A DNA stretch of 64,000 bases from a virus (IMGVR_UViG_3300045391_002348:16889-80888); one strand, 5' to 3'. Shown: positions 47,465-60,287, counted from the stretch's first letter. The notes: generated by a model not told the origin, from the letters alone. A program made the numbers and translations.

Positions 47465-47959
47465 TCATCTCCTTTTGAATTCTTTGTGTAGTTTACTAGC
47501 TAACGCATCTCTAGCTCTAATCGCATCTACTTTCCGGTTGAACCTCCCTATATTTATTCGTTGTTTATTGCAGGTGATGTAGGCAATCCACTTTCCTCTG
47601 TCTGGTTGCCAAGAGACCCCTTTCGCCCCGGGCGTGTTTCTTTTGCTTCGTCGTGCATTGTAGTTATTTTGAGAACGAGTTGCCTCTCTTAGGTTCGATA
47701 TTCGATCGCTAAGACCGCGCCTATGGTCGACCTCTCTCGGCCATCTTCCGTAGTAGTAGGCCCATGCTAGGACATGACGACTGTATTTTCGGCCTGCGAT
47801 CTCTATCGCCCAGTAACCGGTCTTCATTCTAGTTCCAGCAATTTTTCCTTTAGTAGGGTGGCCCCCGTTCGCAGGATTTATTTTCCATACAAATACACCC
47901 GTGTCCGGATTGTACCGTAACACCTGATTTAGTCGTTGGATTTCGATCCTGTTTTTCAT
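47465..47959 (-). CDS. HNH homing endonuclease with AP2 domain
   Basis: LRYNPDTG, EVDH...NLREATRSQN, GVSW...WIAYI...GRF; AT-rich. Confidence 0.92.
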   Translation of the reverse strand: MKNRIEIQRLNQVLRYNPDTGVFVWKINPANGGHPTKGKIAGTRMKTGYWAIEIAGRKYSRHVLAWAYYYGRWPREVDHRRGLSDRISNLREATRSQNNYNARRSKRNTPGAKGVSWQPDRGKWIAYITCNKQRINIGRFNRKVDAIRARDALASKLHKEFKRR

Positions 47960-48342: not shown

Positions 48343-50406
48343 TTACTTGCAGTCTGCCCAGTTGTCTCCTATCTCCACGTCCACCTTCACCGGGACCTCC
48401 AGCGGACAAGCCTCGATCATTATGTCTGCCATCTTCCGCCCCTCCTCCTCTCCGGAGAGGGAGCAGTCGGCCTCGTCGTGTACTTGGATCATGATCTGAT
48501 CCCCGTAGCCCTCGTTCCAAAGAGCGAGCATCGCGAGCTTCATCTGGTCTGCCGCAGACGGTTGGATGAGAGAGTTCAGAGCCTTGTGGATGCGAGCCCT
48601 TGCGAGCTCCTCGTCCGGCCAGGCCTCCCGGGCCTCCTCCCACTTCAGCATGCGGCCGTCTCGGAGGTCCCAGTCCCGCGGCTCCCAGTAGGGAAAGCGC
48701 ATCCGACGGTCCATGATCGACTTGATGTAACCCCGGTCGTTCACCCGGTCCTTGCAGGCCTTCGACATGTCCTTCGCGAATGGCATCTCTCTCGCATGCT
48801 GGTCGAACATCGCCTGCGTCTGATCCTTCGTCTTGTTCAGTTGGATCGCCGTCTCGTAGACCCCGCGGCCGTAGATGATCGCGAAGTTCATGATCTTGCT
48901 AGCCTTGTAAGGGAGCTTCACGAGGTCGGCCACGAACTGGTGGTAGTTCAGGCTGGGGTCCTCGATGTACCTGGTGCGAGCGTCGTAGGCGCTCTGCATC
49001 TTCATCTTACAAGCAAAGTGGATGAGGAGCCGGACCTCCTGCTGATTAAAGTCTAGCAGTCCCCACTTCATACCGTGCTCGGGTATGAAGGCCCGGCGGA
49101 TCATCTTCCCCTCCTCCGTCCGGGTCGGAATGAACTGGAGGTTCGGGTCGCTCATAGAGAGCCGGCCGGTCACGGTCCCGCCGTCGTCGGACTTCAAGGG
49201 ATGGATCGAGCCGTGGACCCTCCCGTCGTGGAGCTGGTCGAGGAGCTGCCCCTGCAAGAAGGTCCCCACGAGCTTCGAACCCTCCCGGGCCTGCCGGATC
49301 ATCTTAGCGAGCCAGTGGTTCGTGTCCTCTAGCAGCTTCTGAGTGATCGACGGCAGACCCGTCTTCGTCATCCCGTACTGGAGACCCTCAGCGTCGAAGG
49401 CCTTCGCGATCGAGCCGGCCGCCCATATGTTTATATCCAGACCGGTCCGCCGCTTCATCTCGGCTATCTTCTCGTCTACCGCTCCCTGAAACTTCTTCTT
49501 CAGCTTCTCGACGTAGTCGACGTCGATCCGTACCCCCCTCCTTCTCATACTCATGTACATCGGGAGGAGAGCGTGTTCGAGCTCCACCACCTTCACAAGG
49601 CCGTCCCGCTCGATCAGCGGCATCTGCACTTCTAGTATCCTCCGAGGAGCCTGACTGTCCCACTCAGCATACGGCCCGACGTACTTCGGATGGAGCTTCG
49701 CAATGTCCTCCTTCGGAGAGAGGTTGTAAGCGAAGGCTGCCGACCTCAGCAGGTCCTCCTGCTTCGTCTCCCCTATCCTGTCCATCGCTATGTTTTCCAG
49801 GCTATAGCTGAGCCTGTACTCGTCCAGAAGCGCCTCGATTAGCTGGACGTCCCTGATAGGTCCCCTGATCTCTACCCCATCATTCTTAGCCCACGATATA
49901 TCGTACATGGCGTGAGCGAAGGCCTTCGTCTGTCTATCGTCTTGGAGGACGTGGTTCAGCCAGCGACGGACCTGATCGTGGTCCACGTTACCTTCGGCGT
50001 GGCCGACAGGAAGGTAGCCCGTCCAGTTGTCTGCTGTGATCGAGTACCCAGCTACGTGACCGCCCCCTCGCCAGGCCCAGCCAGCTCCGCTGTCCCTCCT
50101 GAGGCCCTCGTCGTTCGTCTCCAGGTCGACCCCGATGATCCCGTACAACTTATCTGGTAGCTGAGAGAGGTCCGGCGGCTCCCAGTCGGAGGGAGGAACG
50201 GGGGTCATCTCCTCCACACTGAAGCCCAGGTCCATCTGACCCCTCTCGGCCAGGCGAGATCGCTTCGTCGACTTCGGCTTCCCGGTGGACTTCGATACGA
50301 GGCCGTGGAGCCGCTGCTGCTGAGCCCTCCAGGCCTTCGCATTGTTCGTCGGAGCGTGGATACCCCTCCGACCATCCGGGCCAACGACGTCTTCGTACTC
50401 AGCCAT
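48343..50406 (-). CDS. polA: DNA polymerase family A with 3'-5' exonuclease
   Basis: DLET ExoI; GTVTGRLSMSDPNLQ; DFNQQE motif A; KIMNFAIIYG motif B; QVHDE motif C. Confidence 0.96.
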   Translation of the reverse strand: MAEYEDVVGPDGRRGIHAPTNNAKAWRAQQQRLHGLVSKSTGKPKSTKRSRLAERGQMDLGFSVEEMTPVPPSDWEPPDLSQLPDKLYGIIGVDLETNDEGLRRDSGAGWAWRGGGHVAGYSITADNWTGYLPVGHAEGNVDHDQVRRWLNHVLQDDRQTKAFAHAMYDISWAKNDGVEIRGPIRDVQLIEALLDEYRLSYSLENIAMDRIGETKQEDLLRSAAFAYNLSPKEDIAKLHPKYVGPYAEWDSQAPRRILEVQMPLIERDGLVKVVELEHALLPMYMSMRRRGVRIDVDYVEKLKKKFQGAVDEKIAEMKRRTGLDINIWAAGSIAKAFDAEGLQYGMTKTGLPSITQKLLEDTNHWLAKMIRQAREGSKLVGTFLQGQLLDQLHDGRVHGSIHPLKSDDGGTVTGRLSMSDPNLQFIPTRTEEGKMIRRAFIPEHGMKWGLLDFNQQEVRLLIHFACKMKMQSAYDARTRYIEDPSLNYHQFVADLVKLPYKASKIMNFAIIYGRGVYETAIQLNKTKDQTQAMFDQHAREMPFAKDMSKACKDRVNDRGYIKSIMDRRMRFPYWEPRDWDLRDGRMLKWEEAREAWPDEELARARIHKALNSLIQPSAADQMKLAMLALWNEGYGDQIMIQVHDEADCSLSGEEEGRKMADIMIEACPLEVPVKVDVEIGDNWADCK

Positions 50407-50408
50407 CT

Positions 50409-50666
50409 TCAGTCCCAGGTCGTTACGGGCGGGCTCGCCTTCCTCTGATCCGGACCATAGAGCTCGTCCAGTATCTTGTCGGCGTCAGCTCCTGTAACCC
50501 GGTAGTTGCTCGCCAGGTGATCCTGCTTCGCCCTCCGCGACAGCTCGTTCTTCCTGAGGCTTGCTGTCGAGTACCTCACGAGGACCTCCTCCTCGCGGGT
50601 CCCCGGCTCGGGCCTCCGCTCCATCTTCCTTACGATCCTCAGAATTCGCCTTATCAGCTCCACCAC
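50409..50666 (-). CDS. Hypothetical protein
   Basis: SD AGGAGAGG; ends next to the polA start. Confidence 0.55.
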   Translation of the reverse strand: MVELIRRILRIVRKMERRPEPGTREEEVLVRYSTASLRKNELSRRAKQDHLASNYRVTGADADKILDELYGPDQRKASPPVTTWD

Positions 50667-51114
50667 AGTCCTCTCCTATGACGACGACCTCGACGCCGGC
50701 TTCAGCGAGGAGGAGTTGGGCCAGGGGTATCTCCTCAGTCCACCGTCCTGGCACGATCGGCGGGAGGGGTCTCGTGACGACCCGCCTGATCCCCTTCATG
50801 AGTATCTCTCTCGTGCAGCGGACGCAGGGGTGCACGGTGCAGTATAGCGTACCTCCGCGGGTGTCGAAGGTCGCATTCGACAGGGCGTTCTCCTCGGCGT
50901 GGCGGGTGATCTGGTACTTCATGGCTCGGTCCTCCAGACGACCGTCGTCCGCGATCCCGGGAGGAAAGCCGTTGTAACCGAGGGAGAGTTTCCTCTGGTC
51001 CAGGCTGGAGACAGTGACGGCCCCGACCTTCGTGCTTGGGTCCTTTGATCCGGTGGCAGCATAACCAGCCAGTCCTAACATCCACTGGTCCCACTCCCTA
51101 CTCGTCCTCTTCAT
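50485..51114 (-). CDS. dCMP deaminase
   Basis: SKDPSTKVGAV, GYNGFP, HAEENA, PCVRC. Confidence 0.92.
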   Translation of the reverse strand: MKRTSREWDQWMLGLAGYAATGSKDPSTKVGAVTVSSLDQRKLSLGYNGFPPGIADDGRLEDRAMKYQITRHAEENALSNATFDTRGGTLYCTVHPCVRCTREILMKGIRRVVTRPLPPIVPGRWTEEIPLAQLLLAEAGVEVVVIGEDCGGADKANSEDRKEDGAEARAGDPRGGGPREVLDSKPQEERAVAEGEAGSPGEQLPGYRS

Positions 51115-51246
51115 CTCTGTCCTCCTACGGATGGTTGTGCCACCTACACCGACTGCACCAGAACTCATCCGGGTAGGAGACGTAGCTCCAGCTGTCTGTA
51201 TGAAACATCTTACAGATTATCAGGAGCACTACCTGGGTCGGGTCTA

Positions 51247-51717
51247 TCACTTGGCGTACCTCGAGATGATCTCCCCGATGATCTCCCCGATGTTTGGAGG
51301 GGTCCACCCCGGCGGCTTCACAACATCGAGCTTGTGCTTCCGCACGGAGAGAGGATCGTCGTGCCCGGAGGCCCGCACCTTCTTCATGTTCGCCTCCTGG
51401 ACGGCGTCCCAGCACTCATCGAACGGGACCCTCATCATGTGAGCGGTCCCGAGGGCGACGTAGACTAGATCGACGAGAGCATCAGCAGCCTTCGCGAGGT
51501 CACCCTCAAGGTGGGCCATGACAAACTCATCTATCTCCTCTTGCATGAAATTCACCCGGAAGTCCAGTACGCTCACCCCGTCGGTCTTGCTCTGGTCGAG
51601 GAGGGCTGGGGGTCCGCCGCTGTCTCCGAAGTTTGTGAGGCCGAACTTCCTGTGGAAATCTCCCACGTCGCCGTACATGTCCGGGTAGTACAGTGGGTCT
51701 TTGTGATTAACTACCAT
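51247..51717 (-). CDS. MazG-like all-alpha NTP pyrophosphohydrolase
   Basis: QEEIDEF...DALVDLVYVALG...ANMKK...KPPGWTPP. Confidence 0.88.
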   Translation of the reverse strand: MVVNHKDPLYYPDMYGDVGDFHRKFGLTNFGDSGGPPALLDQSKTDGVSVLDFRVNFMQEEIDEFVMAHLEGDLAKAADALVDLVYVALGTAHMMRVPFDECWDAVQEANMKKVRASGHDDPLSVRKHKLDVVKPPGWTPPNIGEIIGEIISRYAK

Positions 51718-52562
51718 GTAGCTCCTCCCTCTAGTTCACGTCGATCGTTTGCGAAGATGTGAAGTGACGTGCAGTGCATCGAGTACGTCGCCGGTTCTAT
51801 GTGCTTCCACTTGTCCGATCGCTTCTTGCACTCCTCCGTGATCCAGAGGAGGAGACGGACGGCCAGGTAGCAGTCGTCGCGGAAGTGTCTTTTCAGGTCA
51901 CAGCTCCTGAGAGGATACCAGATGTGAGAGACCCCCTCGCGAACGATGATCTGGTAGCCCAGGGTGCACGGCTTCCGGCCTCCGTCCCCCTTCCCTGTGT
52001 CCTCTGGAAAGAATAGAGGTATCCAGGCCTGTCTAGTATAGGGCTCCTCGGCGAGAAGCTCAACGAGGTCCTGAAGGTCTCCGTAGGTCCAGCCGATCCC
52101 CCGGAGGCCGCTGTCTATGATCTCCGGATACTTCCGAACTCCGGGAGACCACTCGGCTCCGGTGTAGCGGCCTCCGCTACCTCTGCGGGGAAACTTCGGC
52201 CAGAGCCTCTCGGCGTACGTGTGGTTGAATATCTCCCCCGACCGAAACTTGTCGGCGCTACTGGCCCACGGCCAGTTCTTCCACTCCTCCCCCGGGTTCA
52301 GAGGAGAGCCGCAGACGCGCTCTTCGAAGTGGTTGTCGGCCCACGGAGTGTTAGGACCTATGTCGGCTCTCCAGTGGTCCAGAGACGAGATACCGCGAAG
52401 GGGGACGGAGAAGTCGACGTTCAGCAGTTCGTAGGTCGCCATAGATGGGTTCTTCGCCGCGTCTACTCCCTGCCACCTCTCGGTCACGACCTTCGGGGCC
52501 TGGATCATCTTCCGTTTCAGGATGTCCCAGGCGTATGTGAAATCTGGGTACTTGTCTGTCAC
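51711..52562 (-). CDS. Thymidylate-synthase-fold nucleotide-modifying enzyme (dCMP hydroxymethylase-like)
   Basis: TRQA, catalytic PC (RKPCTLGY), RSCD...D motif; GTG start at the GTGA overlap. Confidence 0.85.
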   Translation of the reverse strand: MTDKYPDFTYAWDILKRKMIQAPKVVTERWQGVDAAKNPSMATYELLNVDFSVPLRGISSLDHWRADIGPNTPWADNHFEERVCGSPLNPGEEWKNWPWASSADKFRSGEIFNHTYAERLWPKFPRRGSGGRYTGAEWSPGVRKYPEIIDSGLRGIGWTYGDLQDLVELLAEEPYTRQAWIPLFFPEDTGKGDGGRKPCTLGYQIIVREGVSHIWYPLRSCDLKRHFRDDCYLAVRLLLWITEECKKRSDKWKHIEPATYSMHCTSLHIFANDRRELEGGATW

Positions 52563-53427: not shown

Positions 53428-54144
53428 CTACCTCCTCACCATCATCGAGTAGTCCCTCCAGGCCAAGGTGGTTACGGGGACTACGGGCTCGATCAGGTCG
53501 AGGATGGCCTCGGCATAGACATAGATTTCATACTGAGCGTGCTTACCCTCGTCCAGAGCGTCGCGGAGGATCAGCCAGTCGAACAAGTTCTTCAGATCGA
53601 CCTTTGCAAACATATGAGAGTAGGTCCCGAGCGGGAGGACGGACCTGGCGAGCTCGCGAGGTACGCCGCGGGCTAGCAGCCGGTGGTAGACCTCGAACGA
53701 GGCCGTGCACGCCTCCTTGATCTCATCGCAGGTCCGGATATCCTCCGAGGAGGAGGTGCCGTCGCGGACCCGCATCTGCTTGTTGCTCTTGGACTGGACC
53801 CCTACGTCGAACGGGTCGGGCACGTAGAACTCCTCGGGCAGCTCCGTGTAGCGAGCAGACACCTCGTTGTAACTCCAGGTCCGGTGGCGGTGCCACTGCC
53901 TGAAGACGAAGATCGGAGCCTTCACCTCGAACTGGAACTCGACGCTCTCGAACGGAGAGGTGTGCCTGTTCTTCATGAGGTATCTGATGAGCCGCTCGTC
54001 CGACTTCTCATCCTCGCCGGTGCGCCAGTCAGCGTTATATGAGACGCGAGCTGCGCGGACGATAGAGAGGTCGTTGCCCATAAAATCGCACAACCTAACA
54101 AACCCGTGATCAAGCACATTTATTCGTTTATCTGACGGAGGCAT
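53428..54144 (-). CDS. thyX: Flavin-dependent thymidylate synthase
   Basis: HTSPFE, RQWHRHRTWSYNEVSARY, ARSVLP, HAQYEI. Confidence 0.96.
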   Translation of the reverse strand: MPPSDKRINVLDHGFVRLCDFMGNDLSIVRAARVSYNADWRTGEDEKSDERLIRYLMKNRHTSPFESVEFQFEVKAPIFVFRQWHRHRTWSYNEVSARYTELPEEFYVPDPFDVGVQSKSNKQMRVRDGTSSSEDIRTCDEIKEACTASFEVYHRLLARGVPRELARSVLPLGTYSHMFAKVDLKNLFDWLILRDALDEGKHAQYEIYVYAEAILDLIEPVVPVTTLAWRDYSMMVRR

Positions 54145-54679
54145 AGGATTTTCTCCAAATTATATTTGATATAGTGACGTGGGATACCTTGTATTTTTTA
54201 GCTAGCCGACCTACCTCTCCCCGTCTTATCTTTGCACCCCGAATACCCCGGACAGCTTCATCGGATAGCTTTCGGTTTACATTAGGTTTTCCCACTAGAT
54301 GACGCGTTCTTATCTTACCGATCTCACGTCTACGTTCCTTCGGAATATCCAGTATGTTTTGAAGGCGTGTTCCCGGCTTTATGTTCTTTCCACTATTGTT
54401 AGTTGGACAATCGTCTAAGTGCCTTATTTCTAATCCGATCTTGAATGCAGCTCGTCCGTACTTAGCATAAGCAACCATGTTATGGACCGAGACCCTCGAC
54501 GATCCCGGCTTCTTGAAGTTAGTTATCCCTGGGGTTGATACCTCCACCACAGGATAACCGCAACCCATGTTTGTAGGCCGCATTTTAGTGCCTCGGAGAC
54601 TTAGCACAGACCCGATAGATAAGTCCACACGGTATCCCCGCTTAAATGCAGCCTCTACAAACTTCAGTGACCTACGCAC
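54128..54679 (-). CDS. HNH homing endonuclease
   Basis: VHNMVA...EIRHLDDCPTNNSGKNI..GT..QN; C-terminal HTH; AT-rich. Confidence 0.85.
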   Translation of the reverse strand: MRRSLKFVEAAFKRGYRVDLSIGSVLSLRGTKMRPTNMGCGYPVVEVSTPGITNFKKPGSSRVSVHNMVAYAKYGRAAFKIGLEIRHLDDCPTNNSGKNIKPGTRLQNILDIPKERRREIGKIRTRHLVGKPNVNRKLSDEAVRGIRGAKIRRGEVGRLAKKYKVSHVTISNIIWRKSYASVR

Positions 54680-54681
54680 TA

Positions 54682-55575
54682 CTAAACTCCCGGTTTGCGG
54701 AATACTGATATTGTTTGGAAGTACGGAGGGTGGACCCCGTACATCTTGTAGTAGGTGTTCAAGAAGTAGGTCGTGGGGTAGTGTCGGAGGAAGGCGGTGC
54801 CTACATGATCCAGGCCGCAGCGCTCGGCGAGGAGAGAATTCAGCATCTGGTGAAGCATGAACGGTCTCTTAGCTCGCATCATGTCCTTCACGCCGAAGGC
54901 AAAGTGGCCGCCCGGCTCCAGGTTATCCACGCACGTCTGATAGATGTCTCCGAGCGTGTCCCAGTACTCCTGGCCCTCCTTCAGGAAGGCGAGGTTGGGG
55001 AGGTCGGACTGATACTTGAACGTGCCGCTCTGGTGCCCTCCCTTGTCCTTCGCGAGCGTCGACATATGCTCGTCCCCGGAGTAGGGAGGGTTGTTAGATA
55101 CGAGAGAGAAGGTCTTGTCGATCTCGGACAGGAAGCCCCCTATGCGGCGAGCGTCTCCGATCCTGATCTTAGCAGACAAATCTAGAGACATGTGTTTTTT
55201 CACATTGGCCTCTAGTATGTCTCTAAATTGAATTTCCATACCAGCAATATTTCTGTTTTGTGTTAGAGCTTCGACTGCAGTAGTTCCGGCGCCGATGGTC
55301 GGGTCCAACACCCAGTCCCCCGGTTTTGTAAACTGCTGTATCAACCACCTTGCTATATGTAACGGCGTTTTTGCTACATGAGCTTCGTTACCGCTCTCCA
55401 TCTTATCGTAGTACTCTCGACGCTCTAGCCGACTGTAGTTTCCGCCTTCTGCTGGTCTCAGTTCACCGAGCGACCTCCTGCAAAACTCGCAATTACAATG
55501 ATACTCGTCCGGGACCTTCCCTGGGTCCATGATATTAACGGGATCGCCCTTCGCCACCTGATAGTCTCCTTCCAT
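54682..55575 (-). CDS. N6-adenine/N4-cytosine DNA methyltransferase
   Basis: VLDPTIGAGTT motif I followed by NNPPY motif IV. Confidence 0.88.
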   Translation of the reverse strand: MEGDYQVAKGDPVNIMDPGKVPDEYHCNCEFCRRSLGELRPAEGGNYSRLERREYYDKMESGNEAHVAKTPLHIARWLIQQFTKPGDWVLDPTIGAGTTAVEALTQNRNIAGMEIQFRDILEANVKKHMSLDLSAKIRIGDARRIGGFLSEIDKTFSLVSNNPPYSGDEHMSTLAKDKGGHQSGTFKYQSDLPNLAFLKEGQEYWDTLGDIYQTCVDNLEPGGHFAFGVKDMMRAKRPFMLHQMLNSLLAERCGLDHVGTAFLRHYPTTYFLNTYYKMYGVHPPYFQTISVFRKPGV

Positions 55576-55595: not shown

Positions 55596-55896
55596 TTATT
55601 GGACGTCCTGTAAATTTGTCCAGGTGTTATCGTGTCTCTTTTGATTTATGTGGTCGATCTCATAACGAGGGGGTCTACCCGTCATCCACAACCAAATAAT
55701 TTCATGTGCCTGGTATCGCCTCCCTAGTATCGTTCCGCAGCGATACCCCCCGTGTCCCTATGTACTCAAGCGCCTTCCTTCCTCCGAATTGAGCGTTGAA
55801 GCTACCTCGGTCGTCTTTCCTAAGTTTCCACGTCAAGTGACCTGATAGCGGATCATAGTCTAACAATTCACGGATACGTTTAGCGCTTAGTATCAC
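55596..55896 (-). pseudogene. HNH endonuclease split by a +1 frameshift in a C6/G6 run
   Basis: LLDYDPLSG...GTRG + YRCG...QAHEIIW...EIDHINQKRHDNTWTNL; run at 55746-55751 (301 = 300+1). Confidence 0.8.
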
Positions 55897-56419
55897 CGTT
55901 CAATCTCCGTCTCGCCTCGCGCACGCACTTCACCTGATAGAGGGCGTCGTGCAGAGCCCCGTGGGCCGGACCCTCCCGGGTAATGCTCCGGGGGTCGAGA
56001 CCACTCAGATGGTAGATGGTCCTGGTGTCCCGGACGTTCCAGAACTTCCAAGGAGGTACGTGCCCGACGACCTTCGAACAGGTCATCCATATCGGTTCGT
56101 CGAAGCCTGCCCCCTGACACCAGATGCAGAGCCCGCTCTGGTCCACGAACCATCTGTGGAAGTCCTGGACTACATCGACGAGCGGTCTCTTATCTGTATT
56201 CATGAGGGCCTGCGTCTCGGCCTTCTGCTGCTTCCACCAGTCGACCGTCGCGGGCTCTATCCGGAGACCGGCGAGCCAGCACGAGTGATCCTCGACATTC
56301 CGGTAGAACGTGGTCCACTCCCTGTCGGGTCCGTCCAGCTCGAACGCCACGGCTCCGATGGAGCGGATAGCCGAGCCGGGCCTCGTTCCCCACGTCTCTA
56401 GATCAAACATGATATCCAT
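55880..56419 (-). CDS. 3'-5' exonuclease (DEDD, DnaQ-like phage family)
   Basis: MFDLETWG...IRSIGAV, WCQGAGFD, RDTRT, HGALHDALYQ. Confidence 0.88.
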   Translation of the reverse strand: MDIMFDLETWGTRPGSAIRSIGAVAFELDGPDREWTTFYRNVEDHSCWLAGLRIEPATVDWWKQQKAETQALMNTDKRPLVDVVQDFHRWFVDQSGLCIWCQGAGFDEPIWMTCSKVVGHVPPWKFWNVRDTRTIYHLSGLDPRSITREGPAHGALHDALYQVKCVREARRRLNGDTKR

Positions 56420-56622
56420 CACACCAGTCCCTTCTCCTTGGCGAGCCATACTGGAACTTTGAACACTCCAGACTCGGACCCCATGCGCGGCTCGAACTCC
56501 ACCTGGGACTTCGGTAACCAGCACTCAGTCTTGCCGTCATAGATCAGATACGCCCTCGGCCTATCTTCGCGGAGTTCGGCATCTATCTCTACGACGTCGT
56601 TGCTACTTCCTCTCATCGACAT
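56419..56622 (-). CDS. Small conserved phage protein
   Basis: CWLPKSQVEF...VPVWLAKEKGL. Confidence 0.75.
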   Translation of the reverse strand: MSMRGSSNDVVEIDAELREDRPRAYLIYDGKTECWLPKSQVEFEPRMGSESGVFKVPVWLAKEKGLV

Positions 56623-56822: not shown

Positions 56823-58415
56823 TCAGAATAGGTCCTTCTCTTGGTCTATGGGCAAGTCTACGAACCGGCGAGAGGAGGGGCGAGGTGCCGCGGGGGGCGA
56901 CGCAATACTATGCGGCCGCGGCACCTCTACCGGGGTGGCTGCTCGGTCGGCGACGTCGGGGGCGGAGGCTCCACCTCTGTCGGCGACTTCAGCAGTCCGT
57001 CCGGGTCTCTTCCTTCTCCTGAGCTTCTTCGTTCCGTACCTCTCGGCGATGGCGCTATCCGTTGGTGCCTCGACGACCTCCGCCCCCTCTACGTCGATGT
57101 CCTCGTGTTCCGGACCGGGGACTATCCCGGGGTCGTACAGGTCTGCCTGGCCATTCACGGGCTGTCCTATGAGGTACTTTCTGGCCCTTATGGTGCAGCT
57201 GGAGTAGAGCCAGCACGCTCCGCACGCCCTCCCCTGGTCCGCGTAGCCTACGTTCTCGCAGTACCACTGCTTGGCTCGGTCGATGTCTACGTTCCTGGGG
57301 AGGAGCCGCCGGCCCGAGGACTTGAACTCCCGCCCCTCTACGTGGGCGGCTACCTGCTCGCTCACGTAGCGACAGAACTGGATAGGCATCGCCTTCCCGG
57401 TCTGCTTCGCCATGATGATATTCTTGTCGTAGTTGTACTCTCCGGCCTCGTTCAGCTTGGCTCCGTAGAATATGAAGTCGTCGGGGAAGCCCTGGACCCG
57501 GGCACGCTCTCGGAGAGTGAGAGGAGTGAAGCGGATGGGGTGCAGCTTGTAGCTCCCGCCGTCCTGGACCGAGGCGCCGCTCGGCTCGTCCCAGTACTCG
57601 ATCTTGCATCCGGGCTTCGCGACGAACCTCCCGGCGTTCGTGTACTGAGTGAGGGACTGACCTCGGCGCCAATGGTCCTTCGCGTACTCGGCGAACTCTG
57701 CCCAGGTCGGCCGGTCCCCGACGTACCTCATTCCGAGCATCTTCTGAGCCCGCTCACTCATGGCGCAGGGGTCGTGGTTCGGGAAGTTCGACGGGTAGCG
57801 GGGCTCGGGTAGATCGTCGACAGCCTCCTTCAAGGTCCGCTTGCCCTCGGGGTCGTCGGTCTCTCCCGGGACGAAGGCCCATCGCTCCTCCTTCAGGGAG
57901 CCAATCATGAACATTCGCTTGCGGTGCTTCTGGACGTTGCCGTAGCCCCAGTTGTGTATCCACTCGGGATACAGGTCATAGTCGGGAAGTACCTTCACGT
58001 ACTCGCTCATCGGGTAGGCTCCGAACGACTTCGGGAGGTCGTCCATCACGAAGAACCTAGGCTTGAGCCTACTGACGATTGCTACAAACAAAGGAATGTC
58101 GGCGGCATCCTTCAGTCGCTCCTCCCGGCTCTGGTTCACCCCGCTGAGCTGGGAGAAGTTCCCGCACTCGGGATGGCCGAGTGCTAGCGTGGGGTTCATC
58201 AGCCGCTCTATCTCCTGGGGCGAGAGGTCCTCGACCTTGTGCTTGAGCAGGGCCTCGGGGAAGTTATAGCGGAAGGTGTTGCGGCCCATCGAGTCTGTAA
58301 TATGGTAGTAGCGACGCCATTCTATGTTTCCAAGTATCCTGAAACCAGCCTGTTTGGCTCCAACACACATCGAACCTATCCCGCATGTAATTCCAACTGC
58401 TGTTAGTTCGCTCAT
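56823..58415 (-). CDS. Divergent C5-cytosine DNA methyltransferase homologue (candidate carboxymethyltransferase)
   Basis: Motifs I TCGIG, IV GHPECGNFS, VI MDDLPK, VIII QKHRKR, IX LTLRERARVQGFPDDF, X QTGKAMP. Confidence 0.88.
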   Translation of the reverse strand: MSELTAVGITCGIGSMCVGAKQAGFRILGNIEWRRYYHITDSMGRNTFRYNFPEALLKHKVEDLSPQEIERLMNPTLALGHPECGNFSQLSGVNQSREERLKDAADIPLFVAIVSRLKPRFFVMDDLPKSFGAYPMSEYVKVLPDYDLYPEWIHNWGYGNVQKHRKRMFMIGSLKEERWAFVPGETDDPEGKRTLKEAVDDLPEPRYPSNFPNHDPCAMSERAQKMLGMRYVGDRPTWAEFAEYAKDHWRRGQSLTQYTNAGRFVAKPGCKIEYWDEPSGASVQDGGSYKLHPIRFTPLTLRERARVQGFPDDFIFYGAKLNEAGEYNYDKNIIMAKQTGKAMPIQFCRYVSEQVAAHVEGREFKSSGRRLLPRNVDIDRAKQWYCENVGYADQGRACGACWLYSSCTIRARKYLIGQPVNGQADLYDPGIVPGPEHEDIDVEGAEVVEAPTDSAIAERYGTKKLRRRKRPGRTAEVADRGGASAPDVADRAATPVEVPRPHSIASPPAAPRPSSRRFVDLPIDQEKDLF

Positions 58416-58882
58416 ATGTGTCTCCAGTTAACTCGGCGCTGTATTGCACTAACGGTCGTCTGAGCTATCTTGTATTTTCTAGCGATCTTCGTCTGGGGGC
58501 CACTCGCATTCCGTATCTCTATAACCTGTTTATTTGTCAGTCGGCTCCTCCTCTCCCCTCTCGGAGAGTTCAGTCGACCCTTCCTAACACAATCCTGCAT
58601 ATTATCAAACTTGGTGCCCAGGAACAGATGGCTGGGGTTTATGCAAACCCCTACGTCGCACGTGTGGCACACATCCATACCCTCTGGAATATCCCCTACA
58701 AATAAGAGATAGGCTGCTCGGTGCGCTGTGGTCATCTTCTTCCACATACGAAATTTTCCGTACTGCTTAAACGTCCCTACTCGCCCACCGGTGAACAACC
58801 AGCACCCTCGCTTAGGGTCGAGCTTATACCTCTCCCTAAGTCTATCGGCTAGGACTTCTTTAGTAGGTGTTGGAGTACCCAC
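58412..58882 (-). CDS. HNH homing endonuclease
   Basis: CWLFTG...YG...AHRAAY...VCHTCDVGVCINPSHLFLGTKFDNMQD. Confidence 0.93.
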   Translation of the reverse strand: MGTPTPTKEVLADRLRERYKLDPKRGCWLFTGGRVGTFKQYGKFRMWKKMTTAHRAAYLLFVGDIPEGMDVCHTCDVGVCINPSHLFLGTKFDNMQDCVRKGRLNSPRGERRSRLTNKQVIEIRNASGPQTKIARKYKIAQTTVSAIQRRVNWRHI

Positions 58883-58907
58883 ATGCTGTCTCCTCTAACT
58901 CCCCCAG

Positions 58908-60287
58908 TCACGACCACTTACTCCTCCTGAACATCTCCACGATCAGCCTACTCCTCCCCTCGCGGTCACTCTCTACGTCAGCCGTCCTCAGCGGGACCTT
59001 CTCCCGGTCGGCAACTCCATCAGGTAAGTCACTACGGAATAAATCTCGGAGTATCTTCTTGTTAGTCCTCAGAGGTCTAGGGAGACCGAGCGCGAGCTCA
59101 CAGACCCGGCGAGAGAGGAAGGGGGAGCGGACCTCGATCCGGTTTCGCATCATCACGCGATCCAGGCGAGGGAGGTGGTAGCAGACGAGCTCATGGAACA
59201 CGTCCGAGCTCTGGCTGTCGTAGCGCTGGGCTCTCCCGTAGCCGCCGAAGAACTCGTCAGAGCCGTCACCGGTCAGGGCGACGTTAAACCTCCGCGCACC
59301 AACTACGTCGGATAGGGCTGTCTGAGGCACCAGGCTCCCGAGGTCCAGTGGTTCCTGCATATACCGGAGAGCCCGGTCCAGGGCTCCCTCGCTGTGGCCG
59401 TTCGTGCCCTCGAACTCTTGCGCGTAGAGCTCGTTCGAGTCTAGGGTGACGAGGTCACCCCCTGCGACCAACTGGGCCCACTCCTCCTCTTTATTCTCGA
59501 CATAGAACGGCACGACCTCCCCGTAGCGCTTCGCCAGCGTGTAGACGATAGAGCTGTCCAGTCCTCCTGAGAGGAGGCAGGACACTGGCACGTCGGAGGA
59601 GAGGACCCTACGTTTAACAGCCTCCTCGATCTCGTGCTTCAGGGAGTAAACTGATGAGGCAGCGGGCTGTAGTCCGTCCACGAGGCGGCACTCTATCTTC
59701 CCGGGATCAGGCCGTAGAATGACATACTCGCCGGGCTGTACCATCGTGATCTCCCGGTAGGGGGTCCGCCACGGCTCCGGGCAGTAGCCCCACTTTATGA
59801 CGGATGCGAAGTAGGTCTCGTCGGGGGAGACCGGCGCGAGGGCTGCAACCGCGTCTGGCTCGGAGGCCGCGGCGATGGCGTAGTTATCGCTCCTGTAATA
59901 GATAGGCTTCTGAGCCAGGTAGTCGCACAGGAGGTGGATCGACTTGTCGATACTGTTGTGAGCAGCTACCGCCCAGAAGCCGTCGAACTTCCTGAACCCC
60001 TCCGGACCCTTCTCAGACAGGGTCCTCGCCACGAGTGGAGCATCGCACGACTCGTCGGTGAACTCTCTGTAGTTTAGTATCTCTCCGACGAAGGCGACGA
60101 CCCACTGCTCGTGGTAGACAGGTTGATCGTCTATGGAGGACAGACCGACTATCGGGAGCCGTGAGTGATATAGCATGCAATCACTCCAGGACGTTAGACG
60201 ATCACGAATACCCCGGTGAGTTATCAGCTCTCGGCCGCGGCCGAACTTCATAGAGAACCCGGGTAGAGCAATCAGGAACCCACACAT
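58908..60287 (-). CDS. Asparagine synthetase B-like amidotransferase (Ntn glutaminase plus ATP-PPase)
   Basis: N-terminal MCG, HSRL, LLSGGLDSS, LTGDGSDEFFGGY, EVRSPFL. Confidence 0.92.
   Translation of the reverse strand: MCGFLIALPGFSMKFGRGRELITHRGIRDRLTSWSDCMLYHSRLPIVGLSSIDDQPVYHEQWVVAFVGEILNYREFTDESCDAPLVARTLSEKGPEGFRKFDGFWAVAAHNSIDKSIHLLCDYLAQKPIYYRSDNYAIAAASEPDAVAALAPVSPDETYFASVIKWGYCPEPWRTPYREITMVQPGEYVILRPDPGKIECRLVDGLQPAASSVYSLKHEIEEAVKRRVLSSDVPVSCLLSGGLDSSIVYTLAKRYGEVVPFYVENKEEEWAQLVAGGDLVTLDSNELYAQEFEGTNGHSEGALDRALRYMQEPLDLGSLVPQTALSDVVGARRFNVALTGDGSDEFFGGYGRAQRYDSQSSDVFHELVCYHLPRLDRVMMRNRIEVRSPFLSRRVCELALGLPRPLRTNKKILRDLFRSDLPDGVADREKVPLRTADVESDREGRSRLIVEMFRRSKWS

Follow-up and report, generated by a model that had tools for sequence, protein, structure and literature searches.

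Background

What does a virus gain from a cytosine C5-methyltransferase (C5-MTase) homologue that carries lysine in its motif X and is encoded close behind an AsnB-like, glutamine-dependent amidotransferase? The question is raised by a locus at positions 56,823 to 60,287 of a 64,000-nucleotide stretch of viral DNA, IMGVR_UViG_3300045391_002348:16889-80888 (called here the window), which corresponds to bases 16889-80888 of an IMG/VR virus whose 80,888-bp genome is complete and bounded by direct terminal repeats. The initial annotation of this locus took the two genes for a hypermodification pair. The lysine-type enzyme, designated MT(K) below, would write 5-carboxymethylcytosine using carboxy-S-adenosylmethionine (carboxy-SAM), the product of CmoA, and the AsnB homologue would turn the carboxylate into an amide such as 5-carbamoylmethylcytosine.

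Carboxymethylation of cytosine is known from phages. CmoX of Synechococcus phage S-B43 makes 5-carboxymethylcytosine from carboxy-SAM supplied by a phage-encoded CmoA, and CmoY, an asparagine-synthetase homologue, joins glycine to the product (Yang et al. 2025, PMC12783734). The cyanophage ligase is therefore itself of the AsnB family, whereas the initial annotation had taken it for a different amide ligase. Nor is an amide base unforeseen: the same work describes a second large ligase cluster with a glutaminase domain, probably using ammonia, and for Arg-type systems with this glutamine-amidase ligase a primary amide was already predicted. A search of the literature brought up neither 5-carbamoylmethylcytosine in DNA nor the gene set described here.

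Our present results describe a close association of both genes with a third one, coding for a paralogue of the thymidylate synthase ThyA. We propose, with a confidence that stays a little below even, that MT(K) is an accessory enzyme acting at the DNA level in a virus-only cytosine hypermodification module that does not run on carboxy-SAM.

A C5-methyltransferase homologue with altered pocket residues

The motifs on which the pairing had been based were correctly read. The catalytic cysteine is kept in motif IV (GHPECGNFS; Cys84, codon 58164-58166), as is motif IX (RERARVQGFPD). Motif VI reads DDL (FVMDDLP), aligned to ENV of Dcm and of the CmoX-type enzyme (in C5-MTases the glutamate of this motif touches N3/N4 of cytosine), and motif X (QTGKAMP) carries Lys341, encoded by AAG at 57393-57395. 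Motifs I, II and VIII are CGIGSM, N-I-E-W (Glu32-Trp33) and QKHRKR, respectively; Glu83, directly preceding Cys84, and Asp125 are further pocket residues. Single-sequence and profile searches of the PDB aligned MT(K) only up to motif IX, and the lysine was placed by profile-profile alignment. In hhalign comparisons with a 36-member family profile, Lys341 falls on the asparagine of FGNSV in Escherichia coli Dcm, which is the correspondence that the initial annotation had asked to see, and on the arginine of IGRAVP in gp123 of Streptomyces phage TurkishDelight, an enzyme of CmoX type. The same alignments place HPEC on SPPC/FPC and DDL on ENV, and bring the glycine after the cysteine of MT(K) opposite a glutamine.

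These residue states are properties of a family. G-K occupies motif X in all 120 closest database homologues, and also in the IMG/VR family loci in which a search pattern could read the motif (it failed in a handful); the only G-N-A-V-P sequences recovered belong to two outgroups, 22% identical. The family signature, derived from the 120 database homologues and about 50 viral loci, is [GS]HP[EK]CG..[FY]S, D[DN]LP, RERARIQG and Q.GK..P. Cys84 is invariant, the proline before it is changed to glutamate and the glutamine after it to glycine, and motif VI is D-D-L or D-N-L throughout, the PEC, DDL and lysine changes recurring in about 170 homologues.

An AlphaFold2 model of MT(K), with a predicted local distance difference test (pLDDT) score of 83.5 and a predicted template modelling (pTM) score of 0.81, finds M.HaeIII, M.HhaI, DNMT1 and MET1 as top Foldseek matches, all with probability 1.00, and the protein is accordingly modelled as a two-domain C5-MTase fold. 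A close relationship to CmoX was considered and ruled out: the CmoX structure 8YF3 stands at Foldseek rank 35 with 14% identity. The NCBI dcm model TIGR00675 gives MT(K) 39.5 bits, under its cut-off of 100.65, which TurkishDelight gp123 passes with 166.5. CmoX enzymes were selected by their describers for an SPPC motif and an arginine at the position of SpCmoX R350 (PMC12783734). MT(K), with HPEC and Lys341, shows neither feature; TurkishDelight gp123 has SPPC and IGRAVP, and its gene is flanked by a glutaminase-bearing AsnB-like gene and a CmoA homologue.

Several other traits of MT(K) were observed. Residues ~376-414 form a helical C-terminal module with four invariant cysteines (C386, C398, C401 and C407), which may be a zinc site. 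The tail (437-530) is disordered, rich in proline, arginine and alanine, with pLDDT <50. The public gene call (P0004, 488 aa) begins some 42 residues further in and thereby loses motif I; the longer, 530-aa open reading frame (ORF) is the better model, because homologues cover the full N-terminus. Homologues P0018, P0079, P0080, P0088 and P0095 carry fused endonuclease-like domains of the Vsr-like/DUF559 (PF04480) and PF18741 families; an intein-like PF14890/PF07591 domain is present in addition in some of them. The Vsr-like fusions may be relevant to the deamination product of the modified base.

At least 477 MT(K) homologues were found. None above 26% identity occurs in cultured phages, and bacterial genomes yielded no close homologue except phage-like contigs binned in metagenome-assembled genomes (MAGs) and one decayed fragment.

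Linkage to a ThyA paralogue

All-against-all clustering of the MT(K) flanks revealed the ThyA-like protein as a third partner, overlooked as long as the AsnB-like gene and the methyltransferase were taken for the pair. Of the non-duplicate MT(K) loci, 32 are flanked by 4 kb or more on either side, and 31 of these contain the paralogue; in the sole miss (L034) it lies just past the flank end. A nucleoside triphosphate pyrophosphatase (NTP-PPase) or a deaminase is likewise found in 31/32 loci, as is a MazG-like or dUTPase_2-like family; the AsnB-like gene follows with 29 and the PF01555 methyltransferase with 16. The predicted linkage of the methyltransferase to the AsnB-like gene is real (42 of 50 non-duplicate loci). 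Distant relatives, 30-39% identical (L041, L043, L053, L054, L056 and L057), have a contiguous cassette of NTP-PPase, MT(K), ThyA-like and AsnB-like genes in permuted order, and three loci, one of them in a 92%-complete genome, combine NTP-PPase, MT(K) and the ThyA-like gene without the AsnB-like one.

The same linkage was approached from the other side. Alignment of the AsnB-like clade against IMG/VR gave at least 474 viral relatives, and the best 80 examined contained 76 new loci. The ThyA paralogue occurs in 73 of these 76, and in 35/35 with good flanks; its gene mostly comes first, followed at a distance of 0-30 bp by the AsnB-like gene. Only 18 loci of this set include MT(K). The AsnB-like enzyme thus cannot be regarded as the methyltransferase's own partner, as had been supposed, since its clade tracks the ThyA paralogue. 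Taken together, the counts make the ThyA paralogue the hub of the module. The AsnB-like amidotransferase is the partner it usually has, and MT(K) is an accessory dependent on the hub in every case.

Three rival explanations of MT(K) were weighed, in falling order of credence an orphan methylase, an enzyme using host carboxy-SAM and a 3-amino-3-carboxypropyl transferase. According to the first, MT(K) is an ordinary SAM-dependent 5-methylcytosine (5mC) methyltransferase directed against host restriction, its neighbours are explained by a shared replication module, and the lysine is a quirk of the lineage. Such an enzyme would possess just what MT(K) retains, namely the full two-domain fold, the catalytic cysteine, the motif VIII arginines, the motif II Glu-Trp pair and a target-recognition region. 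MT(K) also often adjoins or is fused with a PF01555 adenine/N4 methyltransferase, as is common for phage orphan methyltransferases, and several homologues are fused to Vsr-like domains (PF04480/PF18741), Vsr being the classical partner of Dcm. However, five near-invariant pocket positions of C5-MTases are all changed, with the new residues conserved over about 170 sequences, and the linkage to the ThyA paralogue outlasts permutation of gene order in relatives only 30-39% identical. Moreover, a phage replacing deoxycytidine before replication would leave a 5mC methylase little substrate. We therefore consider an orphan methylase unlikely, though worth keeping in view.

Residue signature of the ThyA paralogue

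ThyX encoded in the window supplies dTMP, and the ThyA paralogue is therefore free for another job. Residues diagnostic of such jobs have been defined: N177D marks use of deoxycytidine monophosphate (dCMP), L143D/E hydroxymethylation and D169N 5-hydroxylation (Lee et al. 2026, PMC13326640). The paralogue has Cys181 (51966-51968), Arg178 at the L143 position (51975-51977), Asp204 (= D169) and Asp212 at the N177 position (51873-51875). Arginine at the L143 position is invariant (31/31 and 60/60 distinct paralogues), as is aspartate at the D169 position. Of the features of a T4-type dCMP hydroxymethylase, the cysteine and the aspartate at N177 are present and the acidic residue at L143 is replaced by arginine. 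Judged by these residues, the D/R/D signature (N177D, L143R, D169 kept) fits no characterised class, whether methyl-, hydroxymethyl- or hydroxyl-forming. In profile comparisons with the PDB the paralogue matches the flavin dCMP monooxygenase 9IQU/9IQC (4e-18) and the CMP hydroxymethylase MilA (8e-18), then the Lactobacillus casei thymidylate synthase mutant N229D (7e-13) and T4 dCMP hydroxymethylase (2e-12). A scheme in which the paralogue is a 5-hydroxy-dCMP synthase and MT(K) an O-alkylating enzyme resembling CmoB/TrmR was rejected, as D169N is absent.

Homologues of the paralogue, 37-52% identical, are found in cultured phages of Brevundimonas, Pseudomonas, Serratia, Gordonia and others; those of the four named genera are annotated merely as thymidylate synthase. 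The two homologues checked, of phage Strzyga and the uncultured spring-water virus MW202777, have the same aspartate and arginine, and their genes adjoin those of an NTP-PPase and of a dNMP kinase or P-loop protein, with ThyX and a deaminase in addition in MW202777. An independent association with modified cytosine comes from the MetaGPA study, in which contigs carrying such cytosine showed the strongest domain enrichment for Thymidylat_synt, dCMP deaminase and PRA-PH (PMC8670742, supplementary table 2).

The AsnB-like amidotransferase

The AsnB-like protein starts with M-C-G, which places the nucleophile at Cys2 (codon 60282-60284), and its PP-loop reads SGGLDS. All 49 family copies (49/49) begin with [MVL]CG, and SGG.DS and GDGADE.FGGY are conserved. 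Because the nucleophilic cysteine and the PP-loop are kept in every copy, amide formation dependent on glutamine and ATP is a sound prediction. The scores against TIGR01536 (182 bits, cut-off 267) and NF006949 (126 bits, cut-off 499) describe a member of the family that is not an asparagine synthase equivalog. The AsnB-like clade branches apart from the CmoX-linked ligases (99% support in the Shimodaira-Hasegawa-like approximate likelihood ratio test, SH-aLRT). The protein of the window (P0003) scores 44-88 bits against those ligases and 81 bits against E. coli AsnB, so the clade is no closer to the former than to the latter.

In the 7-deazaguanine cluster of Achromobacter phage Motura (MN094788 18037-19317, L009), an AsnB-like gene lies between those of a DpdA-type transglycosylase and QueC. 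Phage DNA modification has therefore drawn on AsnB-like amidotransferases in three different contexts at least. A 7-deazaguanine role as in Motura was set aside for the AsnB-like protein of the window: no QueC, QueE or DpdA appeared among the scanned replication-module genes or in the Pfam tables of relatives, although no search was targeted at them.

CmoA and the source of carboxy-SAM

The second rival explanation is close to the initial annotation: MT(K) would be a Lys-type carboxymethyltransferase drawing on host carboxy-SAM, and the AsnB-like enzyme would convert its 5-carboxymethylcytosine into 5-carbamoylmethylcytosine. In its favour, Lys341 stands at the position of CmoX Arg350 and M.HhaI Asn304 (PMC12783734). 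The engineered M.MpeI N374K uses carboxy-SAM, as the initial annotation had stated, and CmoA of E. coli itself suffices for SpCmoX in vivo (both PMC12783734). A small residue follows the cysteine, glycine here and alanine in the CmoX-type enzyme, and Arg-type CmoX systems pair with AsnB homologues, some of them glutaminase-bearing.

The carboxy-SAM supply is where this explanation fails to find support. The initial annotation had expected CmoA in the rest of the genome or in the host. The complete 80,888-bp genome has none, nor do five further relatives that are 82-100% complete. CmoA is likewise absent from 57 MT(K) family loci (0/57; flanks up to 10 kb) and from the 76 loci found through the AsnB-like clade (0/76). 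As positive control served Arg-type CmoX loci from IMG/VR whose CmoX shares 49-94% identity with TurkishDelight gp123, and there the same search detected CmoA in 80/80; these control loci contain an AsnB-like gene in 26/80 and a ThyA-family gene in 0/80.

As to the host, MAGs bearing the labels Azospirillum, Alphaproteobacteria and Myxococcaceae contain members of the family. None of these three MAGs has CmoA, which speaks against a host supply to the extent that such labels identify hosts, and CmoA passes its cut-off in 1/81 sampled genomes of the class of the alphaproteobacterial MAG. A 2.78-Mb alphaproteobacterial MAG contig contains a frameshifted and truncated MT(K) fragment (L065:9893-10770), 68% identical over residues 4-227. 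Neither an AsnB-like nor a ThyA-like gene lies near this fragment, which is probably a decayed remnant. The MAG labels and this one frameshifted fragment hint weakly at Alphaproteobacteria as the likely host class.

Further points against carboxy-SAM are that the AsnB-like clade follows the ThyA paralogue and not MT(K), that it is no nearer to CmoX-linked ligases than to E. coli AsnB, and that MT(K) is itself only distantly related to CmoX. We consider host carboxy-SAM improbable. Formation of 5-carboxymethylcytosine followed by AsnB amide chemistry is thus poorly supported; of the wider proposal, a new phage hypermodification involving an amide-forming enzyme remains plausible, and what has lost its footing is the specific carboxy-SAM chemistry.

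A third explanation would dispense with CmoA altogether. MT(K) could transfer the 3-amino-3-carboxypropyl group of SAM to C5 of cytosine, or to a hydroxyl on a substituent made by the ThyA paralogue, with Lys341 binding the carboxylate. Relatives of Rossmann-fold methyltransferases that transfer this group are known, for example Tyw2. The transfer would account for the conserved cationic residue and the enlarged pocket, and would provide a carboxylate for the amidotransferase. It leaves unexplained, however, why the AsnB-like gene mostly occurs without MT(K) and why the ThyA paralogue is obligate, and transfer to oxygen would not need an invariant catalytic cysteine. This is the least probable of the three, and we give it little credence.

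Proposed mechanism

Observed are the linkage of the genes, their residue states and the lack of CmoA; from these we infer the following course of an accessory role of MT(K), every chemical step and the product being predictions. Before replication, the MazG-like pyrophosphatase would turn dCTP into dCMP. Cys181 of the ThyA paralogue would then attack C6 of dCMP, with Asp212 selecting cytosine, and a C5 substituent would be introduced. Because the L143 position is an invariant arginine and D169 is kept, the substituent would be neither methyl nor hydroxymethyl of T4 type nor hydroxyl of RB69 type. Since the arginine stands where the cleft opens, either the group itself or the nucleophile that traps it may be anionic. 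Most likely, the AsnB-like enzyme, with its N-terminal-nucleophile cysteine glutaminase and adenylating PP-loop domain, would next convert a carboxyl or activated carbonyl of the substituent into an amide, using ATP and glutamine-derived ammonia, and the modified nucleotide would enter DNA. After replication, MT(K) would act on cytosines bearing, or due to receive, a polar or anionic C5 group, with which Lys341 would pair.

The pocket of MT(K) can be divided along the same lines. Cys84, the motif VIII arginines and the adenosine-binding Glu32-Trp33, all retained, are what covalent C6 catalysis and cofactor binding need. On the donor side glutamine after the cysteine is changed to glycine and the motif X asparagine to lysine; in engineered M.HhaI the same two positions have been enlarged to fit bulky SAM analogues. 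On the base side proline is changed to glutamate and glutamate to aspartate, at sites where the CmoX-type enzyme keeps PPC and ENV. Remodelling of the base side would fit a different substrate and not merely a different donor.

A bolder version may be ventured, which we regard as doubtful. MT(K) would no longer methylate plain cytosine; with its cysteine it would activate a C5-substituted cytosine made via the Arg-type paralogue, and it would extend or exchange the substituent, and together with the AsnB-like enzyme the module would write an amide-bearing cytosine that is not known from any DNA. If this is true, MT(K) would be a natural counterpart of the methyltransferase-directed derivatisation of 5-hydroxymethylcytosine performed in vitro.

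Several points weigh against an accessory, DNA-level role of MT(K) in such a module. The linkage stems in large part from related phage backbones, in which synteny can mimic functional coupling. Alkylation of an already substituted C5 lies outside the C5-MTase mechanism, and the proposed substrate of MT(K) would thus require chemistry that is not known in nature; the retained cofactor-binding motifs suit ordinary group transfer to unmodified cytosine equally well. This genome yielded no dNMP kinase, though cultured phages with the same paralogue have one beside it, and cultured phages carry the paralogue without MT(K) or the AsnB-like gene.

Gene order of the replication module

The genes for the AsnB-like protein, the HNH_3 endonuclease and MT(K) are co-oriented and closely packed minus-strand ORFs, in agreement with the initial annotation, and open a longer replication module (Table 1).

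Table 1. Genes of the minus-strand replication module; from the AsnB-like gene down to the DNA polymerase gene the order is that of transcription
Gene product	Position	Strand	Supporting matches
AsnB-like glutamine-dependent amidotransferase, 459 aa	58908-60287	-	Pfam GATase_6/7 + Asn_synthase, E 7e-37
HNH_3 endonuclease, free-standing	58412-58882	-	Pfam HNH_3 2.5e-10; phrog_1872
C5-MTase homologue MT(K), 530 aa	56823-58415	-	PF00145 E 2e-20, 73.8 bits (cut-off 22)
Rv2179c-like exonuclease	55880-56524	-	
PF01555 (N6/N4) DNA methyltransferase-like protein	54682-55575	-	Pfam 5e-16; NCBIfam CcrM 4e-06 (weak)
HNH endonuclease	54128-54679	-	
ThyX, flavin-dependent thymidylate synthase	53428-54144	-	PF02511 3e-49
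HAD-phosphatase-like protein, 149 aa	52559-53008	-	phrog_1238 2e-08; phrog_415 7e-06
ThyA paralogue, dCMP-type, 290 aa	51711-52583	-	phrog_160 8e-21; no Pfam match
MazG-like NTP pyrophosphatase, candidate dCTPase	51247-51717	-	PF01503 5.5e-15; phrog_671 6e-26
dCMP deaminase	50485-51168	-	PF00383 4e-16
Family A DNA polymerase	48343-50406	-	
HNH endonuclease with AP2 domain	47465-47959	-	

The HNH_3 gene overlaps the start of MT(K) by 4 nt, and in relatives including L013, L022 and L036 the AsnB-like and MT(K) ORFs abut or overlap with no HNH gene between them. The HNH_3 gene is an insertion between the two and stands outside the pathway. Three free-standing HNH genes in all break up the replication and modification module; their arrangement, the first splitting genes that abut in several relatives, suggests homing-endonuclease insertions. 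The HAD-like gene overlaps the start of the ThyA-paralogue gene. In the PF01555 methyltransferase-like protein the Pfam match covers only profile positions 148-212, near the protein's own N-terminus, and the protein may be permuted or very divergent. In at least 20 loci such a protein is encoded separately next to MT(K), and in P0019, P0064, P0081 and others the two are fused, giving forms of ~750-860 aa. The dCMP deaminase is fused to a PRA-PH domain in some relatives.

The same phage sequence is present, as assembled contigs, in soil and rhizosphere metagenomes. Comparison of the locus with GenBank phages by megablast gave zero matches, and a tRNA scan found none.

Significance

The module is widespread among viruses, as seen from the numbers of MT(K) homologues (at least 477) and of viral loci with the AsnB-like clade (at least 474). 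It offers two candidates for new enzyme classes, the ThyA paralogue with D/R/D signature and the MT(K) scaffold with both donor and base sides of its pocket rebuilt. Should the product be a new amide-bearing cytosine, it would represent a fourth route of phage cytosine modification, a source of new DNA-labelling enzymes, and a new target of, or escape route from, restriction, type IV and CRISPR defences. Annotators should note that a basic motif X residue does not by itself suffice for calling a carboxy-SAM enzyme.

Comparison with known systems

The CmoA/CmoX/CmoY systems, including those of TurkishDelight type, share with the present module the C5-MTase fold, a basic residue at the motif X asparagine, a small residue after the cysteine, a nearby asparagine-synthetase homologue (with a glutaminase domain in the TurkishDelight type) and the modification of phage cytosine as such. 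They differ in the residues themselves, MT(K) having Lys instead of Arg, PEC instead of SPPC and DDL instead of ENV, and in overall relationship (14% identity to 8YF3; the TIGR00675 cut-off passed by the CmoX-type enzyme and missed by MT(K)). Their contexts differ too: MT(K) loci lack CmoA (0/57, compared with 80/80) and contain a dCMP-type ThyA paralogue, which CmoX loci do not (0/80), and the AsnB-like proteins, a clade separate from the CmoY-type ligases, accompany this paralogue and not CmoA. Engineered M.MpeI N374K has the same change of asparagine to lysine at the same motif X position. It is, however, a canonical enzyme with one change, working in a cmoA+ host, whereas MT(K) has four further pocket differences and no evident source of carboxy-SAM.

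Hypermodification of thymidine in phages M6 and ViI likewise starts before replication with a ThyA-type hydroxymethylase and continues by tailoring on DNA, and uncharacterised amidoligases and amidotransferases are associated with such clusters (Lee et al. 2021, PMC8989533). Those pathways act on uracil/thymine by means of a 5-hydroxymethyldeoxyuridine (5-hmdU) DNA kinase and aGPT-Pplase enzymes, none of which is seen here. The 5-hydroxy-dCMP synthases RB69 gp48 and DLP3 gp80 (9IQC; PMC13326640) are, like the present paralogue, phage ThyA paralogues with N177D that install a C5 group other than methyl, and they provide its best PDB profile match. The paralogue described here nevertheless keeps the aspartate and has no D169N, and the tailoring enzymes of those phages are glycosyltransferases.

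The hydroxymethylcytosine pathway of T4 (gp56 dCTPase, gp42 dCMP hydroxymethylase, gp1 kinase and cd deaminase) has its counterparts here in an NTP pyrophosphatase, a ThyA paralogue with aspartate at N177 and a dCMP deaminase, all beside a DNA polymerase gene. In contrast to T4, the L143 position holds arginine instead of aspartate or glutamate, glycosyltransferases are missing and no kinase was found in this genome; in place of the tailoring enzymes of T4 stand the AsnB-like amidotransferase and the variant C5-MTase.

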